This document shows positions 9,127 to 46,642 of a stretch of DNA of 53,445 nucleotides, one piece after another. The position numbers and the translations under genes are program-made. Under the pieces are notes generated by a model, which was not told the origin of the DNA, ran no database searches, and worked only from the letters and a program-made list of their open reading frames with translations. This stretch comes from Acidimicrobiia bacterium (GTDB lineage Bacteria; Actinomycetota; Acidimicrobiia; Spongiisociales; UBA5794), in contig JABDJC010000220.1 of the NCBI GenBank assembly GCA_013003395.1, forward strand, positions 1 to 53,445, read 5' to 3'. The stretch's first letter is position 1, and each line of letters begins with the position of its first letter.

Positions 9127-9234
9127 TCGAGAAATCACTCGGCCAGCGTACCGCGGAGAGCTAACGCACACCTGAGGTCGCCTTGACGTCGGATGGCTGA
9201 TGATCGACTCGACCTCAACGAAAGGATTCGGTCC

Positions 9235-10158: not shown

Positions 10159-10218
10159 GCGTTAGCGTTGCGGTGTGATCCTGCCACCCATCCATCGCGC
10201 CAAGGTCGTCAAGACACC

Positions 10219-16196: not shown

Positions 16197-16292
16197 AGCG
16201 GCATCGTAATGGTGAAGGAGGATGATTCTGGTTGCACCCTTCCTATCCGCCCGGCGCCTTACACTCCGACGCGGAGTCGAGAGAGGTACGCG

Positions 16293-22028: not shown

Positions 22029-22038
22029 TGGCGAGACT

Positions 22039-24598: not shown

Positions 24599-24799
24599 CA
24601 GTACGTCCGCCCGTGAGCAGGTGCGGTCGGAGAGGCGTTGGGTTGGATGTCGAGTCTCGCGAACGTCATCGGCAAGGGGTCTCCTCAGTTCCTCAGCTTC
24701 GTGCGCATCGGTTGGCCAGGGTACTCGAAGCCAGCTGTGGAACGAGCGTTGCAGCGCCGACTCGGCGCACAAGATGCCCGATTGGGCAACAATGGCGAA

Positions 24800-28557: not shown

Positions 28558-29061
28558 TCAGGCGGTTTCTGCAGCCTCTGCTTCTTCAAGGCGGTTCATC
28601 GCCGCCAAGAACATGACGAACAGGATGAACGATCCGATCATCACCGCAGCCGCCGGTACTCGAATCTGGAATGCGTTCAAACCTTCGATTCGAGCGGGCC
28701 GAAGACCCCGGGGGGCATAGACCACGAAGAGCAGGGAACCAATGGCCAGCCATCCGAAGGAGGCTGCACCTCCGACGAGGAAGGCGAGCCGCTTGCCGAG
28801 GTTCGTGTACAGCAGCAGGAACCCGGTGCCGTTGAAGGCGATCAGTGCCGTCACCGTGACGAGGACACCGCGTGCAGCGATCGAGGCCTGAGTGATCTGT
28901 CCACTCTCGTCGGTGTTTTTGAAGATTGCGTCGTACGCGTCGCCGATGGCGCCTCGGATGGCCGGAACAAAGACAAGAGCGGTGAGGATGACGAGCGCGA
29001 TACCAAGCTTCTCGAGCATCGTGAACCCGGATTCTTCACGGTGAAGCCGCTCGATCATCAC
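28558..29061 (-). CDS. Small polytopic membrane protein, last gene of the Rieske/cyt b operon
   Basis: About 4 TM helices; start overlaps the cytochrome c stop; N-terminus contains EESGFTMLE. Confidence 0.7.
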   Translation of the reverse strand: MMIERLHREESGFTMLEKLGIALVILTALVFVPAIRGAIGDAYDAIFKNTDESGQITQASIAARGVLVTVTALIAFNGTGFLLLYTNLGKRLAFLVGGAASFGWLAIGSLLFVVYAPRGLRPARIEGLNAFQIRVPAAAVMIGSFILFVMFLAAMNRLEEAEAAETA

Positions 29062-30644
29062 ATGGCCCTTTCGTACTGAACAATCAACAAGATGTCATCA
29101 CGCGACAAGATCTGTCCGAAGCCGGGCATCCAGCCGCGACCGATTCCGTTGACCCCATAGTTTTCGGCGAGATTCGAACCATTGATGATGAAGTCGACAT
29201 GCTCGTCAGCGGAGGGGAACTGCAGCACGGACCGACCGTCGAGCAATGACGGTCCCCATGCACCAGAGCCCTCTTCTTGCTGGAAGGCGACCCCGGCTGA
29301 ATATCCGGCCGTGTGGCAACGGGCGCAGTAGCTGTTGAACAGGCCAACGGCACGTGTCGCTGCTTCGACGTCTCCATCAAACGCCTCGGCAGCGAGGGCG
29401 TCGAAATCGACCTCCCAAGCAGCCTCGGCAAGTGCCTCTTCGAGGTACTCCTTGCCGGCTTCTGCCGCTTCCAGGAAGACGTCTTGGCGACTCTGGACCA
29501 CGTTGAGCTGGAGCCGGATCGTGTCGAGCTCGCGGAGCAGACTTTCGGCTTCCTCGAGGTCAGGGATCATGTTGCCCGCAGCATCCTCCATCGAGAAGGC
29601 GTTGTCGGTTCGCAACTCGATGGCAAAGTCAGGGCGGTCGAGGCTCTGGGCCACGTGTGCGAACAATTCGTTGATCGCGCGTTCAGCGTCGTCGGCGAGG
29701 CCGTCCCTGTCGGTGTCCAGATTCCTCATCGAGCAGCTCGTGTTGACGAGTGCGGCAGACGCCGGCGTGCAGGTCTCCCGTGCGATGAATACCGCACGGA
29801 TGTCGGCCGGTGTCGTATCGATCGAAGCGAACAACTCGGGTGCTGCGAGGATGTCTTCTATCGCCTGCACTTGACCGTCCGCTGTTGCGGTGCCGTTGAT
29901 GAGGTCTGTGACGGTCAGCGCCCCGTTGTCGATACGACTGAGTGCCTGGTTGACGGCGCCTTCGACCTCGGCAACCACTTCTGCCTGCGGAATCTGCAAG
30001 GAGCGGATGTATGCCATGACCTGGTCGACTTCTTGACTCGTCATACCGCCACCGCCCTCGAGACCGCTCGCAGGCATCGGGGTACCGTCCCGTCCGTAGA
30101 CGATCCAGAAACGGACCTCGTCATCGGAGTAGCGATAGAAGACGTCATTGAGCGATGGCGCCGACCATGCCGTCGTGAGCTTGCTCCGTGGCTCAATGAA
30201 TTCGGCTGCACCGCCGCCGGCAACTGGACCGTGACAGTTCACGCAAGAGAAGTTGGTGTACCAGCGCTCACCTTCGTGGATGTCGCGCTCGTTTTGTTTC
30301 TCGGCGGCTTCAGCCTGACGGTTGGCCTCTGAGAAGTAGTACACCGGCATGGCGATGGCCAGAACCGCGGCTGATATCACCGCAGCGCCAAGGACCCGAT
30401 TCAGACGGGTGGACTCCATCTCGTCGTCAGATATGAAGGGCTGCTGGTTCGGCGGCGTCTCCTCAGGAGACGGTTCTGCGGTTCGTCCTGTGCGCAGCAA
30501 GTAAGCCACCCAGATGAGCGCCGACACCACAGCAATGGCGATGACAACGGCACCGAGGTCGATCGTGGTGTCGGGTACGACCTCGTCTTCAGTCGCCTCG
30601 ACGGCGAGGATCATCGCGTCGAAGAGTTTCGTTCCAGCGCGCAT
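29058..30644 (-). CDS. Membrane-anchored diheme cytochrome c (c subunit of the Rieske/cyt b complex)
   Basis: Two TM helices; CVNCH with GTPMPA; CARCH with WMPGFG. Confidence 0.88.
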   Translation of the reverse strand: MRAGTKLFDAMILAVEATEDEVVPDTTIDLGAVVIAIAVVSALIWVAYLLRTGRTAEPSPEETPPNQQPFISDDEMESTRLNRVLGAAVISAAVLAIAMPVYYFSEANRQAEAAEKQNERDIHEGERWYTNFSCVNCHGPVAGGGAAEFIEPRSKLTTAWSAPSLNDVFYRYSDDEVRFWIVYGRDGTPMPASGLEGGGGMTSQEVDQVMAYIRSLQIPQAEVVAEVEGAVNQALSRIDNGALTVTDLINGTATADGQVQAIEDILAAPELFASIDTTPADIRAVFIARETCTPASAALVNTSCSMRNLDTDRDGLADDAERAINELFAHVAQSLDRPDFAIELRTDNAFSMEDAAGNMIPDLEEAESLLRELDTIRLQLNVVQSRQDVFLEAAEAGKEYLEEALAEAAWEVDFDALAAEAFDGDVEAATRAVGLFNSYCARCHTAGYSAGVAFQQEEGSGAWGPSLLDGRSVLQFPSADEHVDFIINGSNLAENYGVNGIGRGWMPGFGQILSRDDILLIVQYERAM

Positions 30645-30661
30645 GCCCTACCTGGCTCCCG

Positions 30662-31486
30662 TCAGTTGCATGTCGGACCCTGGGGGTACGCGATGGTCTT
30701 GACCGAAGCACGAGGAGTCTGGATGACTTGGCCGGTGTCGATGATGAGATTGCCGTTCGCGTTGACCTCGATCACGAAGCGGTCGAGGTTACGTGGAGCC
30801 GGACCGTCGAAGTACTCGCCGTGGAAGTTGTACTTCGAGCCGTGACATGGGCACTCGAATCCTTGCGAGGGGATGCACTCAGGGACGCGGCAGCCGAGGT
30901 GGACGCATCGCTGCCACAGCGCCATCACGCCACCGGCCACAACGGGAAGTCCCTCGAACGACGATCCTTCGATGTCCGCATCGAACGTAGTCACCCACGA
31001 CTGGGCGGCAGGCAGGAACACTGGCACCAGCGTGCCGTCCGGTTGGTTGATGGCGTCGACGATGTCTTGCACGGAACCCACGTCGATCTTGGCGCCGAAT
31101 CCACCCTTCAGCTTCGGCCAGAAGAAGGCGAGGCCTGCAATGGCGAACTGGGCGAGAAAGATGCCGAAGATGCCGACGAGCGATCGGTTCAGAAACTGAC
31201 GCCGCGTGACATCGTATTCGTCTTTGGTGATGGTCGTCCGCTCGAGCAACGGATCCTTCACCGGCTCAGGATGTTCGGCTACCAGTACGTCTCCGGCCGC
31301 AACATCGGCAGCGTCGACGGACCCTACACGACGGGTGCGTGCCCGATCGCGTGCCCGTGCCTTGCGGCTGAGACGACCTGTGCTCTCGGGTTGCTTCTCC
31401 CGCCGTCCCGCGACAGCAAAGATGCTCACGAATGCGAGCACCGCAACGGCGGCGATAGCCACGATGAAGATCTGTGTCGTGTTCAA
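30662..31486 (-). CDS. Rieske [2Fe-2S] protein
   Basis: CVHLGC and CPCHGSKY, GPAPRNL, Tat motif TRRQFL; TTG start overlaps the upstream stop. Confidence 0.92.
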   Translation of the reverse strand: MNTTQIFIVAIAAVAVLAFVSIFAVAGRREKQPESTGRLSRKARARDRARTRRVGSVDAADVAAGDVLVAEHPEPVKDPLLERTTITKDEYDVTRRQFLNRSLVGIFGIFLAQFAIAGLAFFWPKLKGGFGAKIDVGSVQDIVDAINQPDGTLVPVFLPAAQSWVTTFDADIEGSSFEGLPVVAGGVMALWQRCVHLGCRVPECIPSQGFECPCHGSKYNFHGEYFDGPAPRNLDRFVIEVNANGNLIIDTGQVIQTPRASVKTIAYPQGPTCN

Positions 31487-32397
31487 AAGTCGAAGAATAT
31501 CCCGTCTGCCCAAGGATACGTGAAGTTGAACCCTGGGCCTCTGAAGAACGAACCGAAGATGGTCAAGATTGCTGATGCCATGACAAAGAACGTGAAGATC
31601 ATTATGGCCAGTTTGCGGTCATTGGGCCGCACCGAAGGGTTCTTGTCGATGTAGGGGATGAAAGCGATGGCCGCGATGCCGAAGCCAGGAATGATCACGC
31701 CTGCGACTTGGGGATCGAAGTAGCTCAACAGTTCCTGCAAGCCGAGGAAGTACCACGGAGCCTTCGACGGGTTCGGCTGTTCGTTGAAGTTGGCCAACTC
31801 CAACAGGGGAGCATCGACGAAGACCGAAAAGACCAGCAGGAATGCCGTCATCACCATCAAGGCGACAAACTCGGCAGCGACGAGGTGGGGCCACGTGTTG
31901 ACCTTGTCGTGCGGTTCCTTCTTCACCTGCTGAATGGCGTTGGCCTTGACGACCGTAAGGAGACGTTGGGTCCGAACTCCGGCGGGTATTGCAGCTACTG
32001 GGGCAGCGGCAGGAGCCGCTGCTGCGCCGCCACCACCGCCTGCGGCCACGGGTGCCGCCGGCGCAGCGCCCGGAAGCGCGATGCCGTCGGCCTTGGCGCG
32101 TGCTCTCGTGCTGCGTTCGATGAGCGATTCGGGTACGCCAACGTCGGCCATTGCTGCGAAGCCCTCGAGGGCCGCTCCACCGGGGTCAGCGGCAGCGGGT
32201 GCTGCGGCGGCAGGTTCTGGCGCCACAGCCTCGGCGACTGGAGCCGCGGCGGGCTCGCCGGCTGGAGCCGCAGCAGGCGCTGAGCCGCCCTCGGGTGCGA
32301 GACCCATTTCGGCAAGGATCTCGTCGAGCGGTCGACCTTCCGCCTTGGCACGCGCCGCCGCGGAGCGTCTGAGGATGGATTCAGGTATCTCAGCCAA
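31483..32397 (-). CDS. Cytochrome b subunit IV (PetD-like) with Ala/Pro-rich N-terminal extension
   Basis: WPHL, NPSKAPWYFLGLQELL (PEWY equivalent), IPYIDKNP and three TM helices. Confidence 0.85.
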   Translation of the reverse strand: MAEIPESILRRSAAARAKAEGRPLDEILAEMGLAPEGGSAPAAAPAGEPAAAPVAEAVAPEPAAAAPAAADPGGAALEGFAAMADVGVPESLIERSTRARAKADGIALPGAAPAAPVAAGGGGGAAAAPAAAPVAAIPAGVRTQRLLTVVKANAIQQVKKEPHDKVNTWPHLVAAEFVALMVMTAFLLVFSVFVDAPLLELANFNEQPNPSKAPWYFLGLQELLSYFDPQVAGVIIPGFGIAAIAFIPYIDKNPSVRPNDRKLAIMIFTFFVMASAILTIFGSFFRGPGFNFTYPWADGIFFDF

Positions 32398-32406
32398 GCG
32401 CTTCTC

Positions 32407-33192
<786 letters not shown>

Positions 33193-34537: not shown

Positions 34538-36475
34538 GTGAGCGCAGAGATCCAGGCAACCGAAGCGACCTCCCTGTCTGACGGGGATGTGGCCGCTGCC
34601 AACAGCACATCGTTGGCGCACCTCAGAGTTGCCGGCGCATTTCTCGTTGCAGCTGCGCTACTGGGAATGGTGGCCGCATTCCAGATCGTTGCCCCCGACT
34701 TGCTCAGCGGCGTCGAGATGTTCTCCTACGGCCGGATCGCTCCTGTCGCGCTCGACACCTTCATCTACGGGTGGCTGACGATCGGACTCATCGGGGCTGC
34801 CTATCACATTCTTCCAAAGGTCTCTGAAGCGCCCTTGTGGAATCCGATGCTTGCGAAGACGGGCCTTGGCCTGATCACGCTCGGTGTGGCCATCGGCGGC
34901 CTGGCGGTGCTCTCTGGCTTCAACGAGGGCCGACTGCTGCTCGAGTATCCACTCTGGGCAGACGCGCTCATCGTGTTGGGCGTCGCAATCGCCGCATTCG
35001 TTTGCACGAAGACCGTGTCAGGCGGACAAAAGGACCTGATGCCTGCCCAGTGGTTCCTCGTTGCAGCACCGTGGTGGTTCGTGTTCAGTTTCGTCAGCGG
35101 AAACCTTCCTGGAATCCCGGGTGTCAATTCGCAGCTGCTGACCTCGTTCTTCCAATCCAGCTTCACCGGGCTGTGGCTCGCTGCGGCCGGCGTTGGCGTT
35201 GTCTATCACATCGTTCCTGCACTGACCGGTCACGGCCAGCGGCGGTCCTCGCGGATCTCGCTCATCGTGTTCTGGTCGCTCGCATTCGCCTGGGCCTGGA
35301 CCGGTCCACGATTCAATGTGTACGGACCGGTGCCTGACTGGCTCGAGACCATCGGTGCGTTCTTTGCGATCGGGCTGTTGGTGCCGGCAATCGCAGTCAT
35401 CGCGGACGTCGCATTCACCGTGCGCGACCGTTGGGATCACGTGACCAACCAGGCGGCGATCCGCTACCTCGCTGCCGGCTTCGTCTTCTTCACGATTGCG
35501 GCGGTCCAGAACATGGTGCAGTCGCTTCGGTCGCCTAGTGCGGTCTTGCAGTTCACTGCATGGCAATCGGCTTTCGACCTCGTCTTGTTCTATGGCGCCA
35601 TCTCGTTCTGGCTGTTCGCATTCGTCTCGGTCTCGCTGCCTGCGCTCGCGGGACGCCGTCCCACCGACGTATCGGCGCAGGTGCACTTCGGTGTGTCCGT
35701 CTCTGGTTTGCTGCTCGCCGTCGGAGCATCCTGGTTTGGTGGCCTGCAGCAAGGGCTGACATGGATCGGCACCGCGAACACCGAGGACGTGCTGCCCTAC
35801 GGCGAACAGTTCATCAATTCGGTTGGTCCACTCGAGGGTCCGTGGCTGCTGCGTGCCTTTGGACTGGCACTGTTTGCGCTGGCACAGTTCCTGTTCCTTC
35901 GTTCCCTGTTCGGCGCCGGCGCCGAGGCCACCGATGTAGACCGGGTTGTCGTAGACGATGACGGGGACGATCCAGCGGTCCTCGATCCGGCTCCGCCTGT
36001 GTTGCTGGGCGGGCTGTTGAAAGGCGCCGTCGGCTTGTTTGCCGTTGCGGCTCTCTCAGTTTGGATCCTGCCCAGCTTTGAAGCCGAAAACGTCGAAGGC
36101 ACCATCCTCGGCGACTTCAGCCGCTTCTATGAAGAGGGATCGGATGAGGCTGCCGGTCGACAGATCTACCTCCAGGAAGGCTGCTGGTACTGCCACACAC
36201 AACAAGTCCGACCGATCGTCACCGATGTCGGACTCGGACCCGTGAGCCAGGCAGGAGACTACGTGCACGAGACCCCGGCGATGTTCGGGGTGCAACGGAT
36301 CGGGCCCGACTTGATGCACTCCGGCTCCAGAGAGCCGACGGACTCGGTCGCCTGGCTGACTGCGTATCTCAACGACCCCCGCGCGGTGCGGCCTTGGTCG
36401 ACGATGCCCGCGTATGGCAGTCTGAGTGACACAGAAATCTCGCAACTGGCCGCCTATCTCGTGAGTCTCGACTGA
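34538..36475 (+). CDS. cbb3-type oxidase CcoN-like (ligand-less) domain fused to a CcoO monoheme cytochrome c
   Basis: FSYGR, GRLLLEYP and TGP...YGPVPDWL match CcoN framework motifs. The C-terminus has GCWYCHTQQVRP, RIGPDL and STMPAY. Confidence 0.85.
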   Translation: MSAEIQATEATSLSDGDVAAANSTSLAHLRVAGAFLVAAALLGMVAAFQIVAPDLLSGVEMFSYGRIAPVALDTFIYGWLTIGLIGAAYHILPKVSEAPLWNPMLAKTGLGLITLGVAIGGLAVLSGFNEGRLLLEYPLWADALIVLGVAIAAFVCTKTVSGGQKDLMPAQWFLVAAPWWFVFSFVSGNLPGIPGVNSQLLTSFFQSSFTGLWLAAAGVGVVYHIVPALTGHGQRRSSRISLIVFWSLAFAWAWTGPRFNVYGPVPDWLETIGAFFAIGLLVPAIAVIADVAFTVRDRWDHVTNQAAIRYLAAGFVFFTIAAVQNMVQSLRSPSAVLQFTAWQSAFDLVLFYGAISFWLFAFVSVSLPALAGRRPTDVSAQVHFGVSVSGLLLAVGASWFGGLQQGLTWIGTANTEDVLPYGEQFINSVGPLEGPWLLRAFGLALFALAQFLFLRSLFGAGAEATDVDRVVVDDDGDDPAVLDPAPPVLLGGLLKGAVGLFAVAALSVWILPSFEAENVEGTILGDFSRFYEEGSDEAAGRQIYLQEGCWYCHTQQVRPIVTDVGLGPVSQAGDYVHETPAMFGVQRIGPDLMHSGSREPTDSVAWLTAYLNDPRAVRPWSTMPAYGSLSDTEISQLAAYLVSLD

Positions 36476-36477
36476 TC

Positions 36478-37338
36478 ATGCAAGAACAGCTCGCTTCCAT
36501 CTCCGCTGAACTGGGAGTTCCAACCGACCTGGTGGAACGTGCGGCACGTGCTCGCGCCACCGCTACCGGGACGACGGTGGAGCAGATCGTTGCTGCCTGG
36601 AGCGGCGGAGAGGCGGCGCCGGCAGCGGCAGCTCCTCCCGCAGCGTCTGCAGCCGCTCCTGCAGCTGCCCCGGCGGCGGCGGCTCCTGCAGCGCCGGCTG
36701 GGCCGATCGTCGAAATCTTCGAGCCAACGGCCGCTCCGCCTGAAGTTGAAGTAGAGGTTGAACCTGAGGTGCCCGAGCCCGTGAAGCGTCGGGCCGTGCC
36801 CGTTTGGATGATGGCCACGTTCGTCGCGATTCCCGCAGTGGCCCTCATGTACGCATTGTTGATTCCGAACGGGCCAGACTGCGGAGGTGGCGGCCAACTC
36901 GCCATCGATCCCGTCACTGGAGTTGCGCAGTCTTGCGATGGTTCTGAATACGGTGTCAGCGCGGTCGATTTCTTCGCGATGGGCAGCGACCTGTACGCCA
37001 CCCAATGTGCGGCTTGCCACGGTGCGGAAGGCGGCGGCGGCGCCGGCCCCGCATTCACCGGAGGAGCAGTCCTCGCCAGTTTTCCCACTGATCAGTGTGC
37101 GACCCACGTCGAGTGGGTGGCTCTGGGGAGCAGCGCCTGGCCGGAAGCCACCTATGGAGCGTTGGACACACCAGTCGGCAGCAGTGGTGGCGTGATGCCA
37201 GGCTTCGGGTCACGCCTGTCACCGGAAGAGCTAGCAGCCGTCGTGCTCTATGAGCGTGTGGCGTTCGGTGGAGAGGGCATCGGAGTTGCAGAGGCCGATT
37301 GCGGACTCGGCGACGAAGCGGTTGCTGCCGGCGAATAG
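36478..37338 (+). CDS. Membrane-anchored monoheme cytochrome c with Ala/Pro-rich N-terminal arm
   Basis: One TM; CAACH; VMPGFG; 2 nt downstream of the CcoNO-like gene. Confidence 0.88.
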   Translation: MQEQLASISAELGVPTDLVERAARARATATGTTVEQIVAAWSGGEAAPAAAAPPAASAAAPAAAPAAAAPAAPAGPIVEIFEPTAAPPEVEVEVEPEVPEPVKRRAVPVWMMATFVAIPAVALMYALLIPNGPDCGGGGQLAIDPVTGVAQSCDGSEYGVSAVDFFAMGSDLYATQCAACHGAEGGGGAGPAFTGGAVLASFPTDQCATHVEWVALGSSAWPEATYGALDTPVGSSGGVMPGFGSRLSPEELAAVVLYERVAFGGEGIGVAEADCGLGDEAVAAGE

Positions 37339-37384: not shown

Positions 37385-38641
37385 GTGGGTAACGTCCTCA
37401 TCGTGAATCCAGAAGTAGTGATCGTTGGCGGTGGGCCGGGCGGAGCGGCGGCGGCCTATTGGCTTGCTCGCTCAGGTCACTCGGTAGTCCTCGCCGAAAA
37501 GAAGCGATTCCCGCGAGACAAGACCTGCGGTGACGGGCTCACACCCCGAGCAATACATCAACTGACCGAGATGGGATTCGACTTCGCGGTGCCGGAGCTG
37601 CACAAGATCGTGGGATTGCGAGCGTACGCCGGCGGAGTGAAGCTCGAGATGCCTTGGCCCGATCACAGCATCTACCCCAACTGGGGAGCAGTGATTCGTC
37701 GGACCGACCTGGACATGCAGGTTGCTGCCCTCGCCGAAAAGCAAGGGGCGCTCATTCTGCAGGGCACCACGGCTGAACCGGTCGTCGAGGGAGGCCGACT
37801 CACTGGCGTGCGATTGAAAGACGGCGATGGCGACGAGCGCTTGGTCCACCCCAAGGTCACCGTCATCGCGGACGGATCCCTCTCCAGGTTTGGGCGCAAA
37901 CTCGGCACCGAGCGCAACAAGGCGTATCCGTACGGATTGGCCGTGAGGGGGTACTACAACTCACCGCGGTCCGACGACCAATATCTCGAGTCACACCTCG
38001 ACATCCGAGACAGCAATGGCAGCCCACTTCCTGGCTACGGCTGGATCTTCCCGCTCGGTGATGGCCAACTGAACATCGGGGCAGGAGCCGTGTCAACCTT
38101 CAAGGGTTGGAAGGAATTCAATTCGAACAAGCTCATGGACGCACTGATCGAAGCCCTTCCTGAGTACTGGGGGGTCACGCCGGAATCGGTGGTTGTGGCG
38201 CCAAAAGGCGGCAAGCTCCCGATGACGTTCTCGGTTTCGCCGAAGGCCGGCCCGAATTGGGTGCTGGTTGGAGATGCAGCAGGAGCAGTGAACGCGTTCA
38301 ACGGTGAAGGCATCGATTACGGGTACGAAACCGGTCGCCTCGCCGCCCACTACATCTCGCAAGCAATCGGAAGCGATGATCTCGGCTTGCTGCAGAACTA
38401 TCCCGCTGCGCTCGAAGACCAATACGGCTTGTACAACAAGGTCGCTCGCCTGTTCTTGACGGCGATTGGAAGGCCCCAAGTGATGGGTGCTCTGGTCCGG
38501 ACGGGAATGCGGTCACGGCCGCTGATGGAATGGGTGTTGAAGGTGATGGCCAACCTGATGGAGCCGGAGGACCGGGGCTTCGGAGAACAGGTCTACGGCG
38601 CGATCGAACGAATCGTACGCGTCACTCCTGACGTGCGCTGA
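37385..38641 (+). CDS. Geranylgeranyl reductase family (MenJ-like menaquinone side-chain reductase)
   Basis: GGGPGG, FPRDKTCGDGLTPR, PGYGWIFP and GDAAG...NGEGI. Start may instead be GTG 37403. Confidence 0.85.
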   Translation: MGNVLIVNPEVVIVGGGPGGAAAAYWLARSGHSVVLAEKKRFPRDKTCGDGLTPRAIHQLTEMGFDFAVPELHKIVGLRAYAGGVKLEMPWPDHSIYPNWGAVIRRTDLDMQVAALAEKQGALILQGTTAEPVVEGGRLTGVRLKDGDGDERLVHPKVTVIADGSLSRFGRKLGTERNKAYPYGLAVRGYYNSPRSDDQYLESHLDIRDSNGSPLPGYGWIFPLGDGQLNIGAGAVSTFKGWKEFNSNKLMDALIEALPEYWGVTPESVVVAPKGGKLPMTFSVSPKAGPNWVLVGDAAGAVNAFNGEGIDYGYETGRLAAHYISQAIGSDDLGLLQNYPAALEDQYGLYNKVARLFLTAIGRPQVMGALVRTGMRSRPLMEWVLKVMANLMEPEDRGFGEQVYGAIERIVRVTPDVR

Positions 38642-38673
38642 ACCGGTCCCTCCTGACGTGCGCTGAAACGGTC
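38625..38673 (+). repeat. Tandem duplication of the 3' end of the reductase gene (24 nt, 1 mismatch)
   Basis: CTCCTGACGTGCGCTGAA(C/A)CGGTC at 38625 and 38650. Confidence 0.85.
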
Positions 38674-38743
38674 TAGTCCGACGGCGTGTCGAAATACCGT
38701 GCTTGAGTCGCGAATGATCGGGGCCGATAGGCAGTAGTGACAG

Positions 38744-41700
38744 TTGCCAATCGAGCCGTTCGTGAACACACAAACCACTTCTAAATCCGTAGACACCGCG
38801 CGTCGATGGGAGGGCCGTCCGGTCCTCTCATTCGCCGTGCGTTCTGCAGTCTTTCTGCTTCCGATCCTGGCGTCGATCGGAGTATCCGTGGGATTGTCCA
38901 AGGCGGCCCCATCGCCTGACAACGTGATCCAGCTCGGGCTGATCTGGTTGGTGATCATCGTGGCGTCGACGGCAACTCTCATGAGCGTGGAGAAAGTGGC
39001 TCGCAAGGCGCTCCCGCTGGCAGCGATGCTGAGCCTCACGATGGTGTTTCCGGATCAATCGCCGTCGCGTTTCCGAACTGCCCTTCGATCTGGCTCATCA
39101 GTGAAGAATCTTCGCGCCATCCTGGCCGAGGCCGAGTCGGTGGACGACAACTCGCCGGCTAAATCAGCTGAGTTGGTGTTGCAGCTGGCCACGGCACTCA
39201 ACACTCACGACCCTCGCACCCGTGGTCATGCCGAGCGCGTTCGGGCTTACACGGAGATGTTGGCCGAAGAAATGAACATCGGCGACGAGGACCGGGCAAA
39301 ACTGCGTTGGGCGTCATTGCTTCACGACATCGGCAAGTTGAAGGTCTCCACCGACATCTTGAACAAGCCAGGCAAACTCGACGACGACGAGTGGGAGCAG
39401 ATCAAGCTACACCCGGTCTTCGGTGAGGAGATTTGCGGACCTCTCCTCGACTGGCTCGGACCATGGGCCGGAGCGGTTGTCGATCACCACGAGCGCTTTG
39501 ACGGAAACGGGTACCCACACGGCAAGGCCGGTAGCGAGATCTCGCAAGCCGGCCGGATCGTCTGTGTCGCAGATGCGTACGACGTGATGACGACGGTGCG
39601 TTCCTACAAGGAACCGATGTCGACGGCCGAGGCTCGCCAAGAGCTGGCGCGTCACGCCGGAGCCCAGTTCGATCCAAAGGTCGTGCGGACGTTCCTGAAT
39701 CTCTCGATGGGCCGCCTGCGATGGATCGCTGGTCCGTTGTCGTGGCTGGCGCAGCTGCCGTTCCTCCAAGGTCTGGCCGGTGTGGCGCAGAGCGTCGGGT
39801 CGACGGTTGGTGTTGCCGCAGTCGCGACGGGCGGGGCTGCCGCCGCCCTCACGACCGGAGTCGTGACCTTGCCAGGCAGCGGACCGCTCGAGCTTCCGGA
39901 ACCACCTCCCGCATTGGTGCAATTCGTCGACACGCAATACGCACCCGTCGCCAGAGACGATTTCGCAACTGCAACGCAAGACGCGCGGCGAGTCATCGAC
40001 GTGTTGAACAACGATGCGCTGTCGAGCATTGACACCCTGGCGATCGTCGTCGACCCGTCGTTCGGAACCGTCATCGTCAACGCCGACGGCACCGTCACCT
40101 ACATTCCGTCCGGCGAGTACGTCGGTGAGGACGAATTCGTCTACGAAGTTATCGACAGCGGCGGGCAATCGACGACGGCAACGGTCGTGATCACGGTGGT
40201 TGGGGTCAATGATGCGCCGATCGTCCGAGGCGACTCTGCGACCGTCGACGAAGACGACGCAGTCGATATCGATGTGCTTGCAAACGACAGCGACGCAGAT
40301 GGGGCCATCGCCGCCATCGAGCTCGTCGGCCAACCTTCGAACGGCGTCGCAACCCTCAACAGCAACTTGACGGTCAACTACCGGCCAGATGCCGACTTCT
40401 TCGGATCTGATCTGATCACCTACGTCGCCATCGATGAGGATGGCGCACGGTCGGAGGGCACCGTCGCAGTGGTGGTCCGGCCGGTCAACGACCCTGTCGT
40501 CGATCCGGGGCCGGGGACGCTCGTGGCGGCTGGGGGCAAGACTGTTCGTTTCGACCCGCTGGCGCTGGCCGTCGACAAAGACGGGGACACAGTGTTCCTC
40601 GCATGGTTCGACTCGATCTCGATCGCTGGAGGCACTGTCGTCGAGGGAAGTCTCATCTACACACCGCCATATGCGTACTCGGGTTCCGACTCCTTCCGTT
40701 ATGCGCTGTCGGACGGAATCGTCGAGACCGTCGTAACCGTACGGCTCGATGTACGGGGCACCCCGGACACAGCTGGACCCACGATCACGCTGCTCGGCCC
40801 GAACCCGCTGGTCCTGAACATCGGTGACGAGTTCACCGATCCAGGGGCGCAGGTCGCAGACGCCGACCCATCCTTCAAACCATCGTTCATAGTCGACGCT
40901 ACCGCCGTCGATACGAGCAAGGCCGGTTCGTATCTCGTCGTCTACACGTCGACCGACCCGACGGGGAACACGTCGACCCGCACAAGGACCGTCGTCGTGG
41001 AAGACCCGAACGGCCCTCAACTGTTGGTCAAGGGTTCGAATCCGCTCACGATGGAGGCCGGACAGCTGTACGTCGAGGCCGGCGCCACCGCCTCCGACGC
41101 GAAAGACGGTGACCTCACCGCGTCGGTCATCGTCGACGCTTCGCTGCTCAATGCCGGTCGACCAGGAACCTATACGGTCTCATATCGAGTCACCGACTCG
41201 GATGGAAAGCAGGCCACAGCGCAACGCACGGTCAAAGTGATCGACACCACGAAGCCCAAGATCGTGCTGAAGGGCGCCGATCCGCAGACCATCGAAGCCG
41301 GTGGGGCCTATGTGGAACTCGGTGCCACGGCGGCAGACAACGACACCAGCTTCGCCGCGAGCGCTGTCCCTGATGCCAGCGGCGTGGACGCCTCTCGTCC
41401 CGGTACCTACACCGTCACGTACTCAGTCAGCGACTCTTCGGGCAACAGCGCAAACCCGGCAGTCCGAACGGTGAACGTCGTGGACACGACGAAGCCTGTC
41501 ATCACACTGCAAGGAGCGAACCCTCAGAACATCGAGACCGGCAATCCCTATGTGGAATTGGGAGCAACGGCTACCGACAACGACGCGACGTTCACAGCAT
41601 CGCCAACCGCGGACACCTCGGGGGTCAACACGTCTGTCTCTGGCACCTATACCGTCGTCTATACAGTCGCCGACGCATCGGGTAACACCACAACCAAGAA

Positions 41701-44700
41701 CCGAACCGTTGTTGTGGGCGACATCACGCCGCCAGTCGTCACCCCTACCGGTGCGAATCCGCAGGTCATCGAAGCCGGGAGTGCGTATGTGGAGTTGGGT
41801 GCGACGGCCACGGACAACGACCCGACATTTGCGGCTGTGCCGAGCGCCGACTCGTCGAGTGTCAACACGTCGGTTCCTGGCTCGTACTCGGTGGTGTATT
41901 CGGTGACTGATCCGTCCGGCAACACGGGGACTGCAAACCGGACCGTGGCGGTGGTGGACACGACCGCCCCGGTCATCACGGTGATTGGCAGCAATCCGCA
42001 GGTGATCGAGGCCGGGAGTGCGTATGTGGAGTTGGGTGCGACGGCGACGGACAATGATGCGACGTTCTCGGCGACGCCTACAGCGAATTCGTCGGGAGTG
42101 AATACGTCGGTTCCTGGGTCGTACTCGGTGAGCTATTCGGTGACGGATCCGTCTGGCAACACGGGGACTGCAAACCGGAGCGTGACGGTGGTGGACACGA
42201 CGGCCCCGGTCATCACGGTGATTGGCAGCAATCCGCAGGTGATCGAAGCCGGCGCGGCGTATGTGGAGTTGGGTGCAACGGCGACGGACAATGATGCGAC
42301 GTTCTCAACGACGCCTACGGCGAATTCGTCGGGAGTGAACACGTCGATTCCTGGGTCGTACTCGGTGAGCTATTCGGTGACCGATCCGTCGGGGAACATC
42401 GGGACTGCCAATCGGACGGTGGCGGTGGTGGATACGACTGCTCCGGTCATCAGCCCAACTGGCGCCAATCCGCAAGTCATCGAGGCTGGAGCGCCCTACG
42501 TCGAACTCGGAGCAACGGCGACCGACAACGACGCCACTTTCGGTGGGGTGCCGGCTGCGGACGCGTCTGGAGTGGATACCTCAACACCTGGTTCATATCT
42601 CGTGGCGTATTCGGTCACTGATCCGTCCGGCAACATCGGGACGGCGAATCGAACCGTTGCCGTGGTAGATACGACCGACCCCGTAATCACGGTGACCGGT
42701 GCCGATCCCCAGACCATCGAGGCCGGCTCTTCCTATTCAGAACTCGGAGCATCAGCCACGGACAACGACGCGTCGTTCTCAGCTTCGCCAGTCCCAGACG
42801 CGTCAGGCGTAGACACCGCAACGCCGGGTTCGTACATCGTGGTTTATTCCGTGACCGATCCGTCCGGGAACACCGGCACCGCGAGCCGCGGCGTTGACGT
42901 GGTCGACACCACGCCGCCCGTCGTGACCGCGAGCCAGACGGGTGCGGTCCTCGAGACAGCCACTGTCGGCACGACGGTGATGACCGTCGCCGCAACCGAC
43001 ACCGTGGGAGTCACCGGATTCACCATCGTCGGGGGATCGCCCACGTTCTCGATCGACGCGGCCGGAGTGATCCGCACGTTGGTCCTGCTCGATCACGAAA
43101 CGACGTCGTCATACGGCCTGTCGATCACCGCGACCGATGATGCCGGCAACACATCTGCTGCGGAAACCGTCACCGTCGATGTCGACGACGTCAATGAGCC
43201 GCCGATCGCGGTCAACGATGGAGGTTTCTCAACAACCACTGATGTGACTATCTCTATCGACTCGGCCGACCTGCTCAGCAACGACAGCGATCCCGATGCA
43301 GAGAGCCCGATCTTCGATGACGTTGTCAGCACGACGACCACGCAGGGTGGAACCATCGAGGATCCGGAGAGCGACGGTGTCTACCTGTATACGCCGCCGG
43401 CCGGTGTCGACGGGATCACGGACACGTTCGACTATCGAATCCGCGATGCGCTCGGGCTCACGGACACTGCAACGGTGAGCATCTCGATCGGATCGGCGGT
43501 CTCCGACCCGGCGTTGACCAGCATCGACCCGGCAAGTAGCCCGGCGAGCCCGATCCAAGCGGTGGTCGGCCAGGAGACCCGGATCGACGTGTACGTGCAA
43601 AACCTCTCGGGCGACCCCGCACCGGGTGTCGAGATCACGGTGACGGTCGACAGCGCCGACTTCCTCCTCGTCAACTCGGGAGGATGCTCGCAGACGGCGA
43701 CGGAGGTCGTGTGTCTGCTCGGCAAGGTGAATTCGCTCCAGATCAAGAGCCACAAGGTGGAGTTGGTGCCCCAGAACGTCGGATCCGGCTGGGCGTTGCC
43801 GGTGGTCGTGACGATGAACGGCTCGGACACCGACGGCACCAACAACTCGGGAACGATCTATTTGGACGTCACGCCCACCCCGCTGCTCGTCAGCGAGTTC
43901 GCCACCGAGGGGCCGGGCGACTTCATTGAGCTGTACAACGCCGGGACCTCCGACATCGACATCGCCGGCCTCGAGGTGCGCCTAAACGGCGCTGGTGTGA
44001 GCGACATCACGCTGGCCGGTGCCGACACGGTGCTCGCACCAGGTGAGCATTTTCTCCTAGCCGACGATGCGGGCGACCTCGACGGGGCTGCCGACCAGAC
44101 GTTCGCCTTCGATTTGCCGGCGGATCTGGGTATTCGGATCCGGGATGCTTCGGGTGTCGTCGATGAAGTCGGGACAGGGACGTCGTCGTGGTTCGAGGGT
44201 GCTGCGCTCCCGGCGATGGTGGTGGACCCAACAACAGAGCAGAGCTACGAGCGCCTCGACAGCTCCACCTCCGGGAGCTGCGTCGACACCGGAGACAACG
44301 GCGCCGACTTCATCCGCCACTGGGACCATCGGGATCCGCAGGCGACCGACGACCTGGCGACGCCATGCGGTGCGCCCCTCTACGTGGTGTCTGCCGACGC
44401 CGGTGTCGTGGTGGTCAACGAACTGTTGTATTCCCAGACGGGGGCGAAGGACGAGTTCATTGAGCTCTACAACGCCGGGGGCTCGGACTACGACCTGACG
44501 GGCTTGCGGCTGACCGACTCGAGTCCGTTCACCGGTCACGTCGACCCCAACGATCCCCTCGACTTCACGATTCCCGCAACCGACCTGGCGTCCAACCCAT
44601 CGACGCTTCCCCCAGGTGGCATCGCCGTCATCTGGCTCCAAGAGGACGGTGGCGACACCGGCGCGGCGCTGCACTACAACGTCGATGAAGGGGACCCTGG

Positions 44701-46522
44701 AGTGCTTTCCAACGTGGCCGACGAAGTCTGGCTCGTGGACACTTCAGGCGCCATTGTCGATTATGTCGCCTATGGGGCCGCCAACACCGGAGAGAGGGAC
44801 ACGCCCATTCCAGATGCTCTCGGCATGTGGAACGCCGCCGGTGAAGCCGCGCTCGGCGGCGTCGCAGCCGGCACTTCCATCGCCCTCACCCCCTCAGGCC
44901 TCGATTCCGATGACAGCGCGTGTTGGGAGGTGACCGGTACCGGAACATCGTCCTGCGGTCCGGGCACTGTCGACCTCGACGCAGCCGCCGGTCGAGTGAC
45001 GTCCGTCGGCAGCAACAACAACAATCTGGTTGCCGACGTTGCGTTCCACAGTTCCGTGCCTGCGGGGAACTTGGCGAATCCCGTCCAAGTCACGACCGGC
45101 GTGCCGATGACCATCGACATCACCGCGGAGAACCGCGGCCCATCTCAAGCGCCGGCGTCGAAGGTGTTGCTGCCGCTCGCAACCGGCGAATTCGCGTTCA
45201 ACGGTGGACCCAGCTCGCCCGGATGCGCCTACGACGCGGTCGACCAGGAGGTCACGTGCTCCATCGGTGTTCTGGCGTCCGGAAACAGCGAAACGGTGAC
45301 GATAGGTATCACACCACTCCTTCCAGGCAGCTACACCTTGGCCCTCAGCGTGAATTCGGTCTCGGCGACGGATCCCGATCTGACCAACAACGCGGGCGCA
45401 ATCTCCGTCGACGTCGTACCCACGCCCACACACGTCGTGATCAGTGAGTTCTCGACGGATCGTGCCACGGACTTCGTCGAGCTGTACAACCCGACCAGCG
45501 CTCCGGTGCTGCTCGATGGCTATACGCTCAGGGTGTACCCGCCCGATGGCACGGCAGGCTTCACCGTGGAAGCAACCATCCCACTCGCCAGCTCGACGTT
45601 CATCCCCGCGAACGGCTACTTCCTCATCGGAAACACACCGGATTTGGCACCCGTGGCGGCGGATCATGCGGCGAGCTTCGACGTGGCGCAGTACGGCGGC
45701 GTGGAGATCGCCGACGCGCTCGGAGCCGCGATCGACGGTGCCGGCACGGCGCCTCGCCCTGGGGGCGGCCCGAACGAGCAAGGTGCCGCCTCGAGTGAGG
45801 GCAACGGCGTCGCCGCGATGAACCCCGGCCCGAACGAGCAGTCGATGCAGCGAAGGCACGGCGACGGCCTTGGCAGCTGCATCGACACAGACGACAACGC
45901 CTCAGACTTCGTCCACAACAACGGTGGCGTGAGCCCCAAGAACACCTCGACGGTTGAAGCCTGCGGAACTCCGCCGCTTCCGCCCCCGTCGTCGGCGGCC
46001 GGCGTGGTCATCTCGGAGATCCGGACCGATGGTCCCAATGGCGGTGGCGACGAGATGATCGAGATCTTCAACGCCGGACCGACCTCGGTCGACCTCTTGA
46101 ACTGGGAGCTGCAAGTCGGCGATGGCTTCACTTTGATCTTCAGGTTCAATTCTTTGATCCTCGAGCCAGGTCAGCACTTCCTGTTCGCCACTGCGTCGTC
46201 CGGACTGACGGCCGACACGATCTACGGGCCCGGTGGTACCTCGATCCACGGCACGCTGTTCACGACCGACACCGTCACCAACGGTGCCGCCGTGAGGATC
46301 GTCGACGGCGGCGGAACGCCCATCGACACGGTCGGGTTCGACGGTCCCCCGGCGGAGGGGAATTCCCTGCCGTCACTGTCTACACGAGGGCCGAGCTACG
46401 AGCGCCGGGGCGGAGGCGCCTACGGCAGCTGTGTCGACACCGGCGACAACCTCAGCGACTTCTACATCCGCTCGGTGCCCGATCCTCAAACGCTGGGTGA
46501 CCCGTTCGCCATCTGTTTGTGA
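38744..46522 (+). CDS. Giant HD-GYP phosphodiesterase fused to an adhesin-like ectodomain (Big_9/cadherin-like, 9 DUF5011-like Ig repeats, 2 DUF11-like, 4 lamin-tail domains)
   Basis: TRGHAERV, LHDIGK, HHERFDGNGYP and ADAYDVM; a hydrophobic segment; VNDAP/VNDP repeats; DTTxPVIT repeats; four (S/N)E...(F/M)(I/V)E(L/I)(Y/F)N motifs. Confidence 0.88.
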   Translation: MPIEPFVNTQTTSKSVDTARRWEGRPVLSFAVRSAVFLLPILASIGVSVGLSKAAPSPDNVIQLGLIWLVIIVASTATLMSVEKVARKALPLAAMLSLTMVFPDQSPSRFRTALRSGSSVKNLRAILAEAESVDDNSPAKSAELVLQLATALNTHDPRTRGHAERVRAYTEMLAEEMNIGDEDRAKLRWASLLHDIGKLKVSTDILNKPGKLDDDEWEQIKLHPVFGEEICGPLLDWLGPWAGAVVDHHERFDGNGYPHGKAGSEISQAGRIVCVADAYDVMTTVRSYKEPMSTAEARQELARHAGAQFDPKVVRTFLNLSMGRLRWIAGPLSWLAQLPFLQGLAGVAQSVGSTVGVAAVATGGAAAALTTGVVTLPGSGPLELPEPPPALVQFVDTQYAPVARDDFATATQDARRVIDVLNNDALSSIDTLAIVVDPSFGTVIVNADGTVTYIPSGEYVGEDEFVYEVIDSGGQSTTATVVITVVGVNDAPIVRGDSATVDEDDAVDIDVLANDSDADGAIAAIELVGQPSNGVATLNSNLTVNYRPDADFFGSDLITYVAIDEDGARSEGTVAVVVRPVNDPVVDPGPGTLVAAGGKTVRFDPLALAVDKDGDTVFLAWFDSISIAGGTVVEGSLIYTPPYAYSGSDSFRYALSDGIVETVVTVRLDVRGTPDTAGPTITLLGPNPLVLNIGDEFTDPGAQVADADPSFKPSFIVDATAVDTSKAGSYLVVYTSTDPTGNTSTRTRTVVVEDPNGPQLLVKGSNPLTMEAGQLYVEAGATASDAKDGDLTASVIVDASLLNAGRPGTYTVSYRVTDSDGKQATAQRTVKVIDTTKPKIVLKGADPQTIEAGGAYVELGATAADNDTSFAASAVPDASGVDASRPGTYTVTYSVSDSSGNSANPAVRTVNVVDTTKPVITLQGANPQNIETGNPYVELGATATDNDATFTASPTADTSGVNTSVSGTYTVVYTVADASGNTTTKNRTVVVGDITPPVVTPTGANPQVIEAGSAYVELGATATDNDPTFAAVPSADSSSVNTSVPGSYSVVYSVTDPSGNTGTANRTVAVVDTTAPVITVIGSNPQVIEAGSAYVELGATATDNDATFSATPTANSSGVNTSVPGSYSVSYSVTDPSGNTGTANRSVTVVDTTAPVITVIGSNPQVIEAGAAYVELGATATDNDATFSTTPTANSSGVNTSIPGSYSVSYSVTDPSGNIGTANRTVAVVDTTAPVISPTGANPQVIEAGAPYVELGATATDNDATFGGVPAADASGVDTSTPGSYLVAYSVTDPSGNIGTANRTVAVVDTTDPVITVTGADPQTIEAGSSYSELGASATDNDASFSASPVPDASGVDTATPGSYIVVYSVTDPSGNTGTASRGVDVVDTTPPVVTASQTGAVLETATVGTTVMTVAATDTVGVTGFTIVGGSPTFSIDAAGVIRTLVLLDHETTSSYGLSITATDDAGNTSAAETVTVDVDDVNEPPIAVNDGGFSTTTDVTISIDSADLLSNDSDPDAESPIFDDVVSTTTTQGGTIEDPESDGVYLYTPPAGVDGITDTFDYRIRDALGLTDTATVSISIGSAVSDPALTSIDPASSPASPIQAVVGQETRIDVYVQNLSGDPAPGVEITVTVDSADFLLVNSGGCSQTATEVVCLLGKVNSLQIKSHKVELVPQNVGSGWALPVVVTMNGSDTDGTNNSGTIYLDVTPTPLLVSEFATEGPGDFIELYNAGTSDIDIAGLEVRLNGAGVSDITLAGADTVLAPGEHFLLADDAGDLDGAADQTFAFDLPADLGIRIRDASGVVDEVGTGTSSWFEGAALPAMVVDPTTEQSYERLDSSTSGSCVDTGDNGADFIRHWDHRDPQATDDLATPCGAPLYVVSADAGVVVVNELLYSQTGAKDEFIELYNAGGSDYDLTGLRLTDSSPFTGHVDPNDPLDFTIPATDLASNPSTLPPGGIAVIWLQEDGGDTGAALHYNVDEGDPGVLSNVADEVWLVDTSGAIVDYVAYGAANTGERDTPIPDALGMWNAAGEAALGGVAAGTSIALTPSGLDSDDSACWEVTGTGTSSCGPGTVDLDAAAGRVTSVGSNNNNLVADVAFHSSVPAGNLANPVQVTTGVPMTIDITAENRGPSQAPASKVLLPLATGEFAFNGGPSSPGCAYDAVDQEVTCSIGVLASGNSETVTIGITPLLPGSYTLALSVNSVSATDPDLTNNAGAISVDVVPTPTHVVISEFSTDRATDFVELYNPTSAPVLLDGYTLRVYPPDGTAGFTVEATIPLASSTFIPANGYFLIGNTPDLAPVAADHAASFDVAQYGGVEIADALGAAIDGAGTAPRPGGGPNEQGAASSEGNGVAAMNPGPNEQSMQRRHGDGLGSCIDTDDNASDFVHNNGGVSPKNTSTVEACGTPPLPPPSSAAGVVISEIRTDGPNGGGDEMIEIFNAGPTSVDLLNWELQVGDGFTLIFRFNSLILEPGQHFLFATASSGLTADTIYGPGGTSIHGTLFTTDTVTNGAAVRIVDGGGTPIDTVGFDGPPAEGNSLPSLSTRGPSYERRGGGAYGSCVDTGDNLSDFYIRSVPDPQTLGDPFAICL
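40766..42904 (+). repeat. Nine tandem Ig-like coding repeats of about 237 bp (79 aa)
   Basis: Repeat starts at 41720, 41957, 42194, 42431 and 42668 are exactly 237 bp apart; units 6 and 7 are near-identical in DNA. Confidence 0.9.
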
Positions 46523-46642
46523 CCTCGCCGAGCGTCGTGAACCAAACCGAGTAGCGACACTCTGACGCGCCGCTGAGCGTGGTGTTTTGGTCTGAGGCTC
46601 GTGGGTTCCTAATCTCCGCTCCGTAGAGGAGCACCAACCGAG

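Follow-up and report, generated by a model that had tools for sequence, protein, structure and literature searches.

A membrane-clamped HD-GYP domain joined to a giant adhesin-like tail in an Acidimicrobiia bacterium: a candidate receptor-type phosphodiesterase

The window analysed here is the whole 53,445-nucleotide stretch of contig JABDJC010000220.1 (NCBI GenBank assembly GCA_013003395.1), which derives from an Acidimicrobiia bacterium and in which an earlier note had proposed that a single gene at 38744-46522 fuses an HD-GYP domain to an adhesin-like ectodomain. Translation of this segment bore out that everything lies in one uninterrupted open reading frame (ORF) of 2,592 codons on the forward strand. 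Its TTG start codon at 38744 is positioned directly 3′ of an in-frame TGA (38738-40), and a GTG at 38762 offers an alternative, being the sole other start that retains the W22-x-G-R-P motif. The public gene call for this protein (P0002, 2,561 amino acids (aa)) begins at V32 and is probably too short, since this conserved motif would be lost. Scanning the region between 38300 and 47000 for regulatory signals yielded two promoter-like sequences (1.4 expected) and six terminator-like ones (4.9 expected), from which no usable signal emerged; one terminator-like hairpin lies at 46567-46585, between the 2,592-codon gene and nuoA. No RNA run was present among the sequencing runs listed as containing the gene.

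Domains were called with Pfam and NCBIfam on the whole protein, while the tail was also tiled as 31 overlapping 140-aa pieces (Table 1). On the whole protein, Pfam recognised HD_5/HD-GYP at residues 149-313 (E 6e-31), Big_9 in four stretches (E 4e-56), Bact_surface_Ig-like in nine (E 7e-148), Cadherin, and lamin-tail domains (LTD) in four (E 6e-51), and the NCBIfam tandem-95 repeat (NF012211) matched in four stretches at 151.9 bits against a cut-off of 90 (E 3.5e-45). All elements that the earlier note had listed (Big_9/cadherin repeats, nine Ig domains, a DUF11-like domain and four LTDs) were thus recovered where it had placed them, far beyond chance, although one DUF11 call stayed below the cut-off. 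Specifically, the DUF11-like domain of the first C-terminal cassette was weak (E 8e-4, below the Pfam cut-off), whereas that of the second reached 31 bits and exceeded it; LTD matches from tiling had E 8e-10 in the first cassette and E 1e-15 in the second. The domains are joined by linkers of the 'VNDAP' and 'DSDADG' types. In total, the tail behind the third transmembrane helix (TM3) comprises 2,216 aa and about 21 beta-sandwich domains, and the resulting rod would probably be tens of nanometres long. The AlphaFold2 (AF2) model referred to below was built from a 102-row alignment (mean predicted local distance difference test score (pLDDT) 84.3; predicted template modelling score 0.77) and superseded an earlier one from an 11-row alignment (mean pLDDT 67.7, with everything after residue 324 below 50).

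Table 1. Features of the 38744-46522 gene and its predicted product (window coordinates).
Feature	Position	Strand	Basis
Whole gene: 2,592-aa membrane-anchored HD-GYP / surface-repeat protein	38744..46522	+	single ORF
N-terminal motif W22-E-G-R-P before TM1, predicted cytoplasmic	38807..38821	+	W22 invariant in 11/11 and in at least 90% of 102 sequences
TM1, about residues 27-51	38822..38896	+	Kyte-Doolittle peak 2.07; AF2 helix 26-54, pLDDT 94-98
TM2, about residues 62-82	38927..38989	+	Kyte-Doolittle peak 2.24; AF2 helix 61-87, pLDDT 97-98
Juxtamembrane motif P91 L92 A93 ... F102 P103 D ... P107 S R109 F, predicted cytoplasmic, family-specific	39011..39073	+	conservation; pLDDT about 91
HD-GYP catalytic domain, residues 144-321	39173..39706	+	Pfam HD_5; PDB sequence matches; Foldseek
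Post-catalytic element G-R-L-R-W-x-x-G330-P-L-S-W-L-A-Q-L-P339, predicted cytoplasmic face	39707..39766	+	conservation; charge
TM3, charge-free, Gly/Ala/Val/Thr-rich, residues 351-376, predicted exit of the chain from the cell	39794..39871	+	Kyte-Doolittle 1.55
Pro/acidic linker, residues 377-399	39872..39940	+	P377 and P387 in at least 90% of 102 sequences
Tandem-95/Big_9/cadherin-like repeats, residues 400-670	39941..40753	+	Pfam; NCBIfam; tiling
Nine Bact_surface_Ig-like domains, residues 681-1386	40784..42901	+	Pfam; tiling; contains the 237-bp x 4 repeat
Cadherin plus one cadherin-like/Big_9 repeat, residues 1400-1582	42941..43489	+	Pfam; tiling
First C-terminal cassette: DUF11-like 1603-1704, LTD 1713-1811, LTD 1884-2011	43550..44776	+	tiling; Pfam
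Second C-terminal cassette: DUF11 2112-2221, LTD about 2227-2340, LTD 2415-2532	45077..46339	+	tiling

The fusion is genuine: this is one gene and not a mis-join of two, because the same arrangement recurs in 60 long homologues, one of them (P0003) is colinear throughout, and the junction is spanned by contigs that come from four sequencing runs. Searching proteins of 1,425-4,536 aa with residues 1-420 as query returned 81 matches, 60 of which (P0003-P0062; 1,426-2,555 aa) share the N-terminal module, continue into surface-type domains (Big_9, cadherin, LTD or others) and derive from JGI, ENA, NCBI and Logan assemblies; the others were 20 unrelated cytoplasmic GGDEF/HD-GYP proteins and the window's own protein. 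P0003 (2,555 aa, from another assembly) aligned over 2,556 columns at 73% identity without any rearrangement, the alignment passing straight through the enzyme/repeat junction and the Ig array with an equal number of domains. Moreover, Logan contigs from four runs and three studies map to the gene, and several of these cross the junction between HD-GYP, TM3 and Big_9 (X2 record 10, 38473-40549, with two differences; X1 record 3, 39264-40306; X4 records 27 and 28; X3 record 17); the samples in which the gene occurs are of sand and sediment, and the best-matching run may be the window's own sample.

The mis-join that the earlier note had considered was therefore not found. An assembly artefact, in which separate genes for a membrane HD-GYP protein and an adhesin were misjoined or in which the repeat array was collapsed or expanded, is hardly credible next to these contigs and homologues and the hundreds of shorter proteins that share the fusion, even though the source genome (G000) is fragmented (247 contigs, 82% complete) and the Ig region contains a tandem DNA repeat. 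This repeat (41756-42695, forward strand; 237 bp x 4, 80% matches according to Tandem Repeats Finder) carries one Ig-like domain per unit and points to recent repeat expansion. It was covered by short Logan pieces only, the listed pieces leaving 41803-42352 unbridged, which is expected for a repeat and no sign of a gap, and for the host organism the Ig repeat copy number at 41756-42695 is that of the window assembly alone.

Judged by alignment, the N-terminal ~380 residues (TM1, TM2, HD-GYP and TM3) are a conserved module of a large Actinomycetota family, which occurs mostly in metagenome-derived Acidimicrobiia genomes and whose signature consists of W-x-G-[KR]-P, two helices, P-L-A..F-P-D..P-S-R-F, the HD-GYP domain, G-P-L-x-W-L-A-Q-x-P and a third hydrophobic helix, all of which are present in the window protein. 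A profile of 11 sequences was run against 1.84 billion representatives and the best 150 were taken, so that the family must be larger; all 150 match the profile over positions ~5-375 at E <= 2e-135 and range from 344 to 2,555 aa. Among the 146 that were new, the tail after the TM3 peak has a median length of about 275 residues (range 65-1,487), while the core remains 41-62% identical. Pfam scanning of 67 of these 146 (every second one, within the size limit) recovered HD_5 in all 67, Big_9 in 24, fn3 in four, pentapeptide repeats in three and GGDEF in two, with most of the remaining ones showing nothing beyond HD families at E <= 1e-4; Big_9 is thus the commonest recognised ectodomain type (24/67).

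A search among shorter proteins gave 686 matches at E <= 1e-60 among 8,000 scored. The organism names attached to matches were solely those of metagenome-assembled genomes (MAGs) of Acidimicrobiia, Ilumatobacter(aceae), Acidimicrobiales and Actinomycetota, and the automatic product names read 'tandem-95 repeat protein' or 'HD-GYP domain-containing protein'. At the level of whole genomes, the full module was matched in 9 of 40 relatives (E <= 1e-98) and in 21 of a phylum-wide sample of 301 (E <= 1e-50), tallies that include the unpublished genomes G027, G038 and G184. When genome contigs were searched with a generic HD-GYP peptide pattern, 5 of the 80 listed loci covered the whole module and 75 were ordinary HD-GYP genes; the five came from an unclassified uncultured bacterium and from MAGs of Actinomycetota, Candidatus Dormiibacterota, Acidimicrobiales and Frankiales, with no cultured carrier among these listed loci. 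The match in the Dormiibacterota-labelled MAG (L024; module residues 7-390, 44% identity) falls outside Actinomycetota and could be due to horizontal transfer or to a binning or labelling issue.

The family also contains complete short forms, namely two 360-aa proteins ending right after TM3 (L015 and L016), one of 411 aa with a short tail, and others of 473-625 aa with Pro/Ser/Thr-rich tails. Tails can be absent altogether or exceed 2,000 residues, and the window copy with its 2,216-aa tail is the extreme of the family. The module is an old, autonomous unit that also occurs without an ectodomain or with low-complexity tails, which makes the rod a lineage-specific add-on instead of an obligatory sensor. 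The earlier reading of the protein as an enzyme-rod sensor stands in part, as regards the real gene, the intervening helix, the topology and the intact motifs, while the tail-less relatives speak against the rod being an obligatory sensor.

The window genome holds a second copy on contig C153 (L011:5926-9021, reverse strand; 1,031 aa), in which 2TM-HD-GYP-TM is followed by seven Big_9 stretches. This shorter paralogue sits between a gene of the alpha-amylase family and that for 2-oxoglutarate dehydrogenase; its orthologue in G023 (1,021 aa) is flanked by this same pair of genes, and the one in G035 (637 aa) lies beside the alpha-amylase gene. The window copy, on the other hand, sits between a gene for a geranylgeranyl-reductase-like flavin adenine dinucleotide protein and nuoA-G. 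Because it is the shorter copy that shares the alpha-amylase-side neighbourhood with its orthologues, gene order identifies the window copy as the extra, second and greatly expanded paralogue. Neither neighbourhood provided a functional lead.

Hydropathy analysis returned two strong helices and a weaker, Gly/Ala-rich one (Table 1), in agreement with the two N-terminal transmembrane segments and the Gly/Ala-rich hydrophobic segment that had been noticed earlier. The latter segment, on whose presence between HD-GYP and the repeats the earlier proposal hinged, is conserved in position: a hydrophobic peak was found there in 59 of the 60 long homologues and, at Kyte-Doolittle >=1.4, in 131 of 143 representatives, and it forms the C-terminal end of the 360-aa forms. 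Its sequence is not conserved, being Leu-rich, strongly hydrophobic and preceded by basic residues in the short relatives, and AF2 models it as helical at a pLDDT of 42-50. The outer loop before TM2 counts only about 10 residues and carries the conserved L55/P58 and W67/W68 (11- and 102-sequence alignments).

The charges around these helices follow a positive-inside pattern over the 102 family sequences. Net charge is positive in all 102 after TM2 (residues 84-112; mean +4.7) and in 96 before TM3 (residues 316-332; mean +2.0). Over the 30-residue stretch behind TM3 it is zero or below in 79 of 97 (mean -1.8). The tail itself is very acidic (isoelectric point about 4.05; 284 Asp+Glu versus 69 Lys+Arg), and all 12 of its cysteines fall in the DUF11/LTD part as six close pairs (1648/1657 and 1846/1875 in the first cassette; 2060/2071, 2161/2172, 2379/2407 and 2563/2591 in the second), as would be expected of disulfide-bonded extracellular domains. 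Based on the positive-inside charge, the charge-free third helix and the paired tail cysteines, we conclude that the N-terminus and the enzyme are predicted to lie inside the cell and the rod outside. We consider this architecture and topology, taken together, highly probable.

No C-terminal LPXTG-type motif was detected, the pattern LPx[TAS]G occurring just once in the protein, at residue 376 where the chain leaves TM3, nor was there a strongly hydrophobic segment near the C-terminus, later Kyte-Doolittle peaks reaching only 1.40-1.44 (residues 1873-1895). A sortase-anchored surface protein was rejected on these grounds, and the N-terminal module would consequently be the only anchor found.

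The translation contains the HD-GYP motifs HD (194-195), HHERFDGNGYP (248-258) and D277, and the presumed metal ligands H162, H194-D195, H223, H248-H249 and D277 align with those of the solved enzymes PmGH, V-cGAP3 and PA4781 and are invariant in the 102 family sequences, in which the wider motif set including E250 and D253-G-N-G-Y-P258 is invariant or nearly so. The domain is thus intact, as the earlier note had read it. Among sequences in the PDB the best matches were V-cGAP3 (5z7c, E 1e-40), PmGH (4mcw, 2e-35), PA4781 (4r8z, 8e-24) and DvhD (9rbz, 7.5e-18), while Foldseek searches with the AF2 model placed 4mcw, 4r8z (target-normalised TM-score 0.74) and 9rbz (0.74-0.82) on top. A homodimer prediction of residues 20-385 scored 0.00 and gave no answer, and so weighs neither way. 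Because all metal-ligand motifs are intact, an active enzyme is more likely than a degenerate receptor, and the HD-GYP domain is probably an active phosphodiesterase.

Across the family, HHE..G.GYP was present in 143 of 146 representatives and HHE in 50 of the 60 long homologues. The other ten (P0026, P0027, P0031, P0043, P0044, P0051, P0054, P0056, P0059 and P0060) have HHA, HHC or HHL instead while keeping HH and GYP, and may form a sub-clade with an altered metal site or activity. The glutamate of 'DPETQNH' in PmGH, four residues before the first ligand histidine, which we take to be E185, an extra ligand of the third iron, aligns with an arginine in the window protein ('DPRTRGH'). Assignment to the trinuclear-iron (PmGH-type) subgroup was rejected for this reason.

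With nine GGDEF and three EAL matches in the window genome, next to seven of the HD-GYP type, cyclic di-GMP (c-di-GMP) is the obvious candidate substrate. The same architecture could also serve 3′3′-cyclic GMP-AMP (cGAMP) or another cyclic or linear dinucleotide, which would be compatible with any of the readings below, and the best solved relative by sequence, V-cGAP3, is indeed 3′3′-cGAMP-specific; however, the c-di-GMP enzymes PmGH and PA4781 match nearly as well by sequence and better by fold, and the genome carries the GGDEF and EAL repertoire just given (cGAMP synthases were not searched for), so that we regard such a substrate as rather improbable. PilZ gave no match in this genome, whose 82% completeness means that absence is not shown. 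An RsiG-like domain (PF22802, E 1.9e-14, 53.5 bits versus a cut-off of 27) is encoded 16 kb upstream, in an ORF at 21489-22205 on the reverse strand, the true start of which is probably an internal Met at residue 60. In Streptomyces, RsiG is the c-di-GMP-binding anti-sigma factor of sigma-WhiG, and the RsiG-like protein is a possible downstream c-di-GMP effector in the host.

PmGH, PA4781 and V-cGAP3 are soluble enzymes whose regulatory domains (GAF, REC or tandem HD) are N-terminal. The window domain resembles them in its HD, H, HH(E), D and GYP motifs and in its fold, but differs in that membrane helices flank it at either end and that it leads into an extracellular tail. With tandem-95/Big_9/cadherin-like and Bap/LapF-type adhesins the window protein shares acidic Ig/cadherin-like arrays, linker types and recent tandem duplication, but its rod is anchored by an N-terminal three-helix enzyme module, with no C-terminal LPXTG-type motif found. 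The layout of a cytoplasmic catalytic domain, a membrane helix and a C-terminal extracellular array of beta-domains is known from the PknB-PASTA kinases of Actinomycetota and from animal receptor-type tyrosine phosphatases. This likeness is one of analogy only, as the window protein is unrelated to them in sequence, would hydrolyse a second messenger and has two extra N-terminal helices.

A further related system is that of DvhD of Desulfovibrio vulgaris, a transmembrane HD-GYP protein acting as a c-di-GMP-binding switch that controls an adhesin-cleaving protease (PMC13090378). In DvhD the HD and HH motifs are changed to SQ and MN, c-di-GMP is not hydrolysed, and a periplasmic dCache domain is present; DvhD and the Pseudomonas protein LapD are both catalytically dead and sequester the protease by a periplasmic dCache or LapD/MoxY domain, the adhesin being a separate protein (PMC13090378). 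The window protein is like these systems in tying a membrane c-di-GMP-binding module to a giant repeat adhesin, and like DvhD in that this module is an HD-GYP domain (PMC13090378). It is unlike them in its intact site, its outer loop of about 10 residues and its rod being part of the same chain. Membership of the LapD/DvhD-type receptor class was rejected, given that the site is not degenerate and that no folded domain lies between the two membrane helices.

These systems nevertheless raise the alternative that signalling runs from the inside out, with c-di-GMP binding and turnover rearranging the three helices in the manner of a 'trigger enzyme' and thereby changing how the rod is presented, oligomerises or is released by proteolysis, which would make the protein a one-chain counterpart of LapD/LapG/LapA and DvhD/DvhG/DvhA. 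The precedent of DvhD as a transmembrane HD-GYP switch for adhesin retention (PMC13090378), its structure ranking among the best fold matches and the classical control of adhesin display by c-di-GMP all fit this possibility. They are outweighed by the window motifs being intact and conserved where DvhD has lost HD and HH and with them hydrolysis (PMC13090378), by the short TM1-TM2 loop offering no folded outside domain to hold a protease, and by the failure to find a LapG-like gene in a Pfam scan of selected window ORFs of >=150 aa plus nuoA (148 aa), in which no dedicated search was made. We therefore judge it improbable; likewise, the earlier note's alternative that rod display is controlled by c-di-GMP binding became less likely, since the LapD/DvhD receptors have degenerate catalytic sites (PMC13090378) and the site here is intact.

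We favour, at a rough probability of 0.4, the explanation that the protein is a receptor-type phosphodiesterase. In the highly probable topology given above, the chain begins in the cytoplasm, passes outward as TM1 and back as TM2 with only the short loop exposed, continues as a cytoplasmic HD-GYP domain held at the inner face of the membrane, and leaves again via TM3 into the rod. The state of this rod (whether it is bound to or clustered on a surface or an adjacent cell, loaded with calcium or under tension) would be passed on via TM3 and the conserved juxtamembrane elements flanking the catalytic domain, and a change in it would alter the rate of c-di-GMP hydrolysis and so feed into the network suggested by the GGDEF and EAL matches and the RsiG-like protein. 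The outside-in coupling of rod to enzyme is itself tentative; output enzymes that are intact usually receive signals in this direction, and by analogy the protein resembles PknB-PASTA kinases or animal receptor-type phosphatases.

In support of such coupling, the family-specific conserved residues cluster where the catalytic domain meets the helices, with W22, P91, F102, P103, P107 and R109 on the N-terminal side and G330 and P339 on the C-terminal side. P91, F102, P103 and P107 are invariant in the 102 family sequences, while G330 and P339 occur in all 11 sequences of the smaller alignment and in at least 90% of the larger one. AF2 modelled these flanking coupling-candidate elements at pLDDT 79-92, the post-catalytic element forming short helices at 322-329 and 331-336 in that same range. 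A pairing between the N-terminal and F-P-D motifs is suggested by the only short strands modelled in this part, which lie at residues 21-22 and 100-101.

Several points nonetheless weigh against a receptor-type phosphodiesterase. The core enzyme would appear to work without a folded ectodomain, given the 360-aa forms and those with Pro/Ser/Thr-rich tails, and appendages that span the wall or mediate adhesion would account for the variable tails no less well than ligand sensing. Furthermore, the unconserved sequence and low pLDDT of TM3 define no signal-carrying contact, we know of no HD-GYP protein regulated from its C-terminal side, and the site would be binuclear if the PmGH glutamate replaced here by arginine is indeed a third-metal ligand, some such enzymes being slow.

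Alternatively, the module may be a self-contained membrane phosphodiesterase core, the C-terminal helix of which has come to serve in Acidimicrobiia as an anchor for wall-spanning or adhesive appendages. Rod and enzyme would then be independent; any regulation of the core would come from the membrane or the cytoplasm, and the enzyme would at most be localised at the adhesin. We weighted this rather doubtful alternative nearly as high as outside-in coupling because of the tail-less cores, the appendage-like variety of tails (highly variable in type and length next to the well-conserved core) and the unconserved TM3 sequence, and it further agrees with the N-terminal module being the only anchor found, without LPXTG-type motif or later strong hydrophobic segment, and with the low model confidence for TM3. 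However, a mere anchor would need no more than one helix, and that all of the hundreds of adhesin-bearing members retain a 300-residue enzyme between the helices suggests that the two are linked in function. In addition, the juxtamembrane elements conserved before and after the catalytic domain tie it closely to the helices.

Within the receptor-type explanation, the more specific contact-sensor reading, in which a cadherin/Ig rod reaching beyond the cell wall gates the HD-GYP domain via one helix, through clustering upon ligand binding or contact or through mechanical load, so that touching a surface or another cell causes c-di-GMP to fall (or rise), is rather unlikely. If it is true, the variable tails of the family would amount to a tool-kit of contact sensors in monoderm Actinomycetota.

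To our knowledge, surface contact is linked to c-di-GMP only via indirect multi-protein routes (pili, flagellar motors, Wsp), and no HD-GYP domain clamped between membrane helices on both sides is known among studied HD-GYP enzymes. If rod and enzyme are coupled, a single chain that joins an intact cytoplasmic c-di-GMP phosphodiesterase to an adhesion rod beyond the membrane would represent the simplest possible wiring. Both the catalytic domain and the kinds of repeat are well known, but the clamped 2TM-HD-GYP-TM arrangement, its C-terminal extracellular tail and the large family so built appear to be new. Acidimicrobiia and other Actinomycetota are abundant in marine sediment and soil and little cultured, and the large, previously undescribed membrane HD-GYP family defined here in them may link surface contact to second-messenger signalling. 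No description of the architecture or family was found in the literature searched, although the combination of HD_5 and Big_9 may figure in Table S1 of the review PMC8846402, which tabulates the Pfam architectures of HD_5 proteins.

Elsewhere in the window, two large ORFs on the reverse strand (12220-14934, 904 aa; 14991-16514, 507 aa) had no Pfam match at E <= 1e-5, and the same holds for ORFs 9193-10104 and 10168-11337. The 639-aa product of 24638-26557 (forward strand) has one PASTA domain (residues 126-186) as its sole Pfam match, with no kinase or transpeptidase domain detected. A bc-type complex is encoded at 29058-33192 (reverse strand), with cytochrome b split into Cytochrome_B (32407-33192) and Cytochrom_B_C (31483-32397), alongside a Rieske protein and a 528-aa cytochrome c protein with two Cytochrome_CBB3 stretches. 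Finally, just upstream of the HD-GYP/rod gene, COX1 and a FixO-like mono-haem cytochrome c are fused in a 645-aa ORF (34538-36475, forward strand), an unusual fused cbb3-like oxidase that is followed by a further cytochrome c gene (36478-37338, forward strand).

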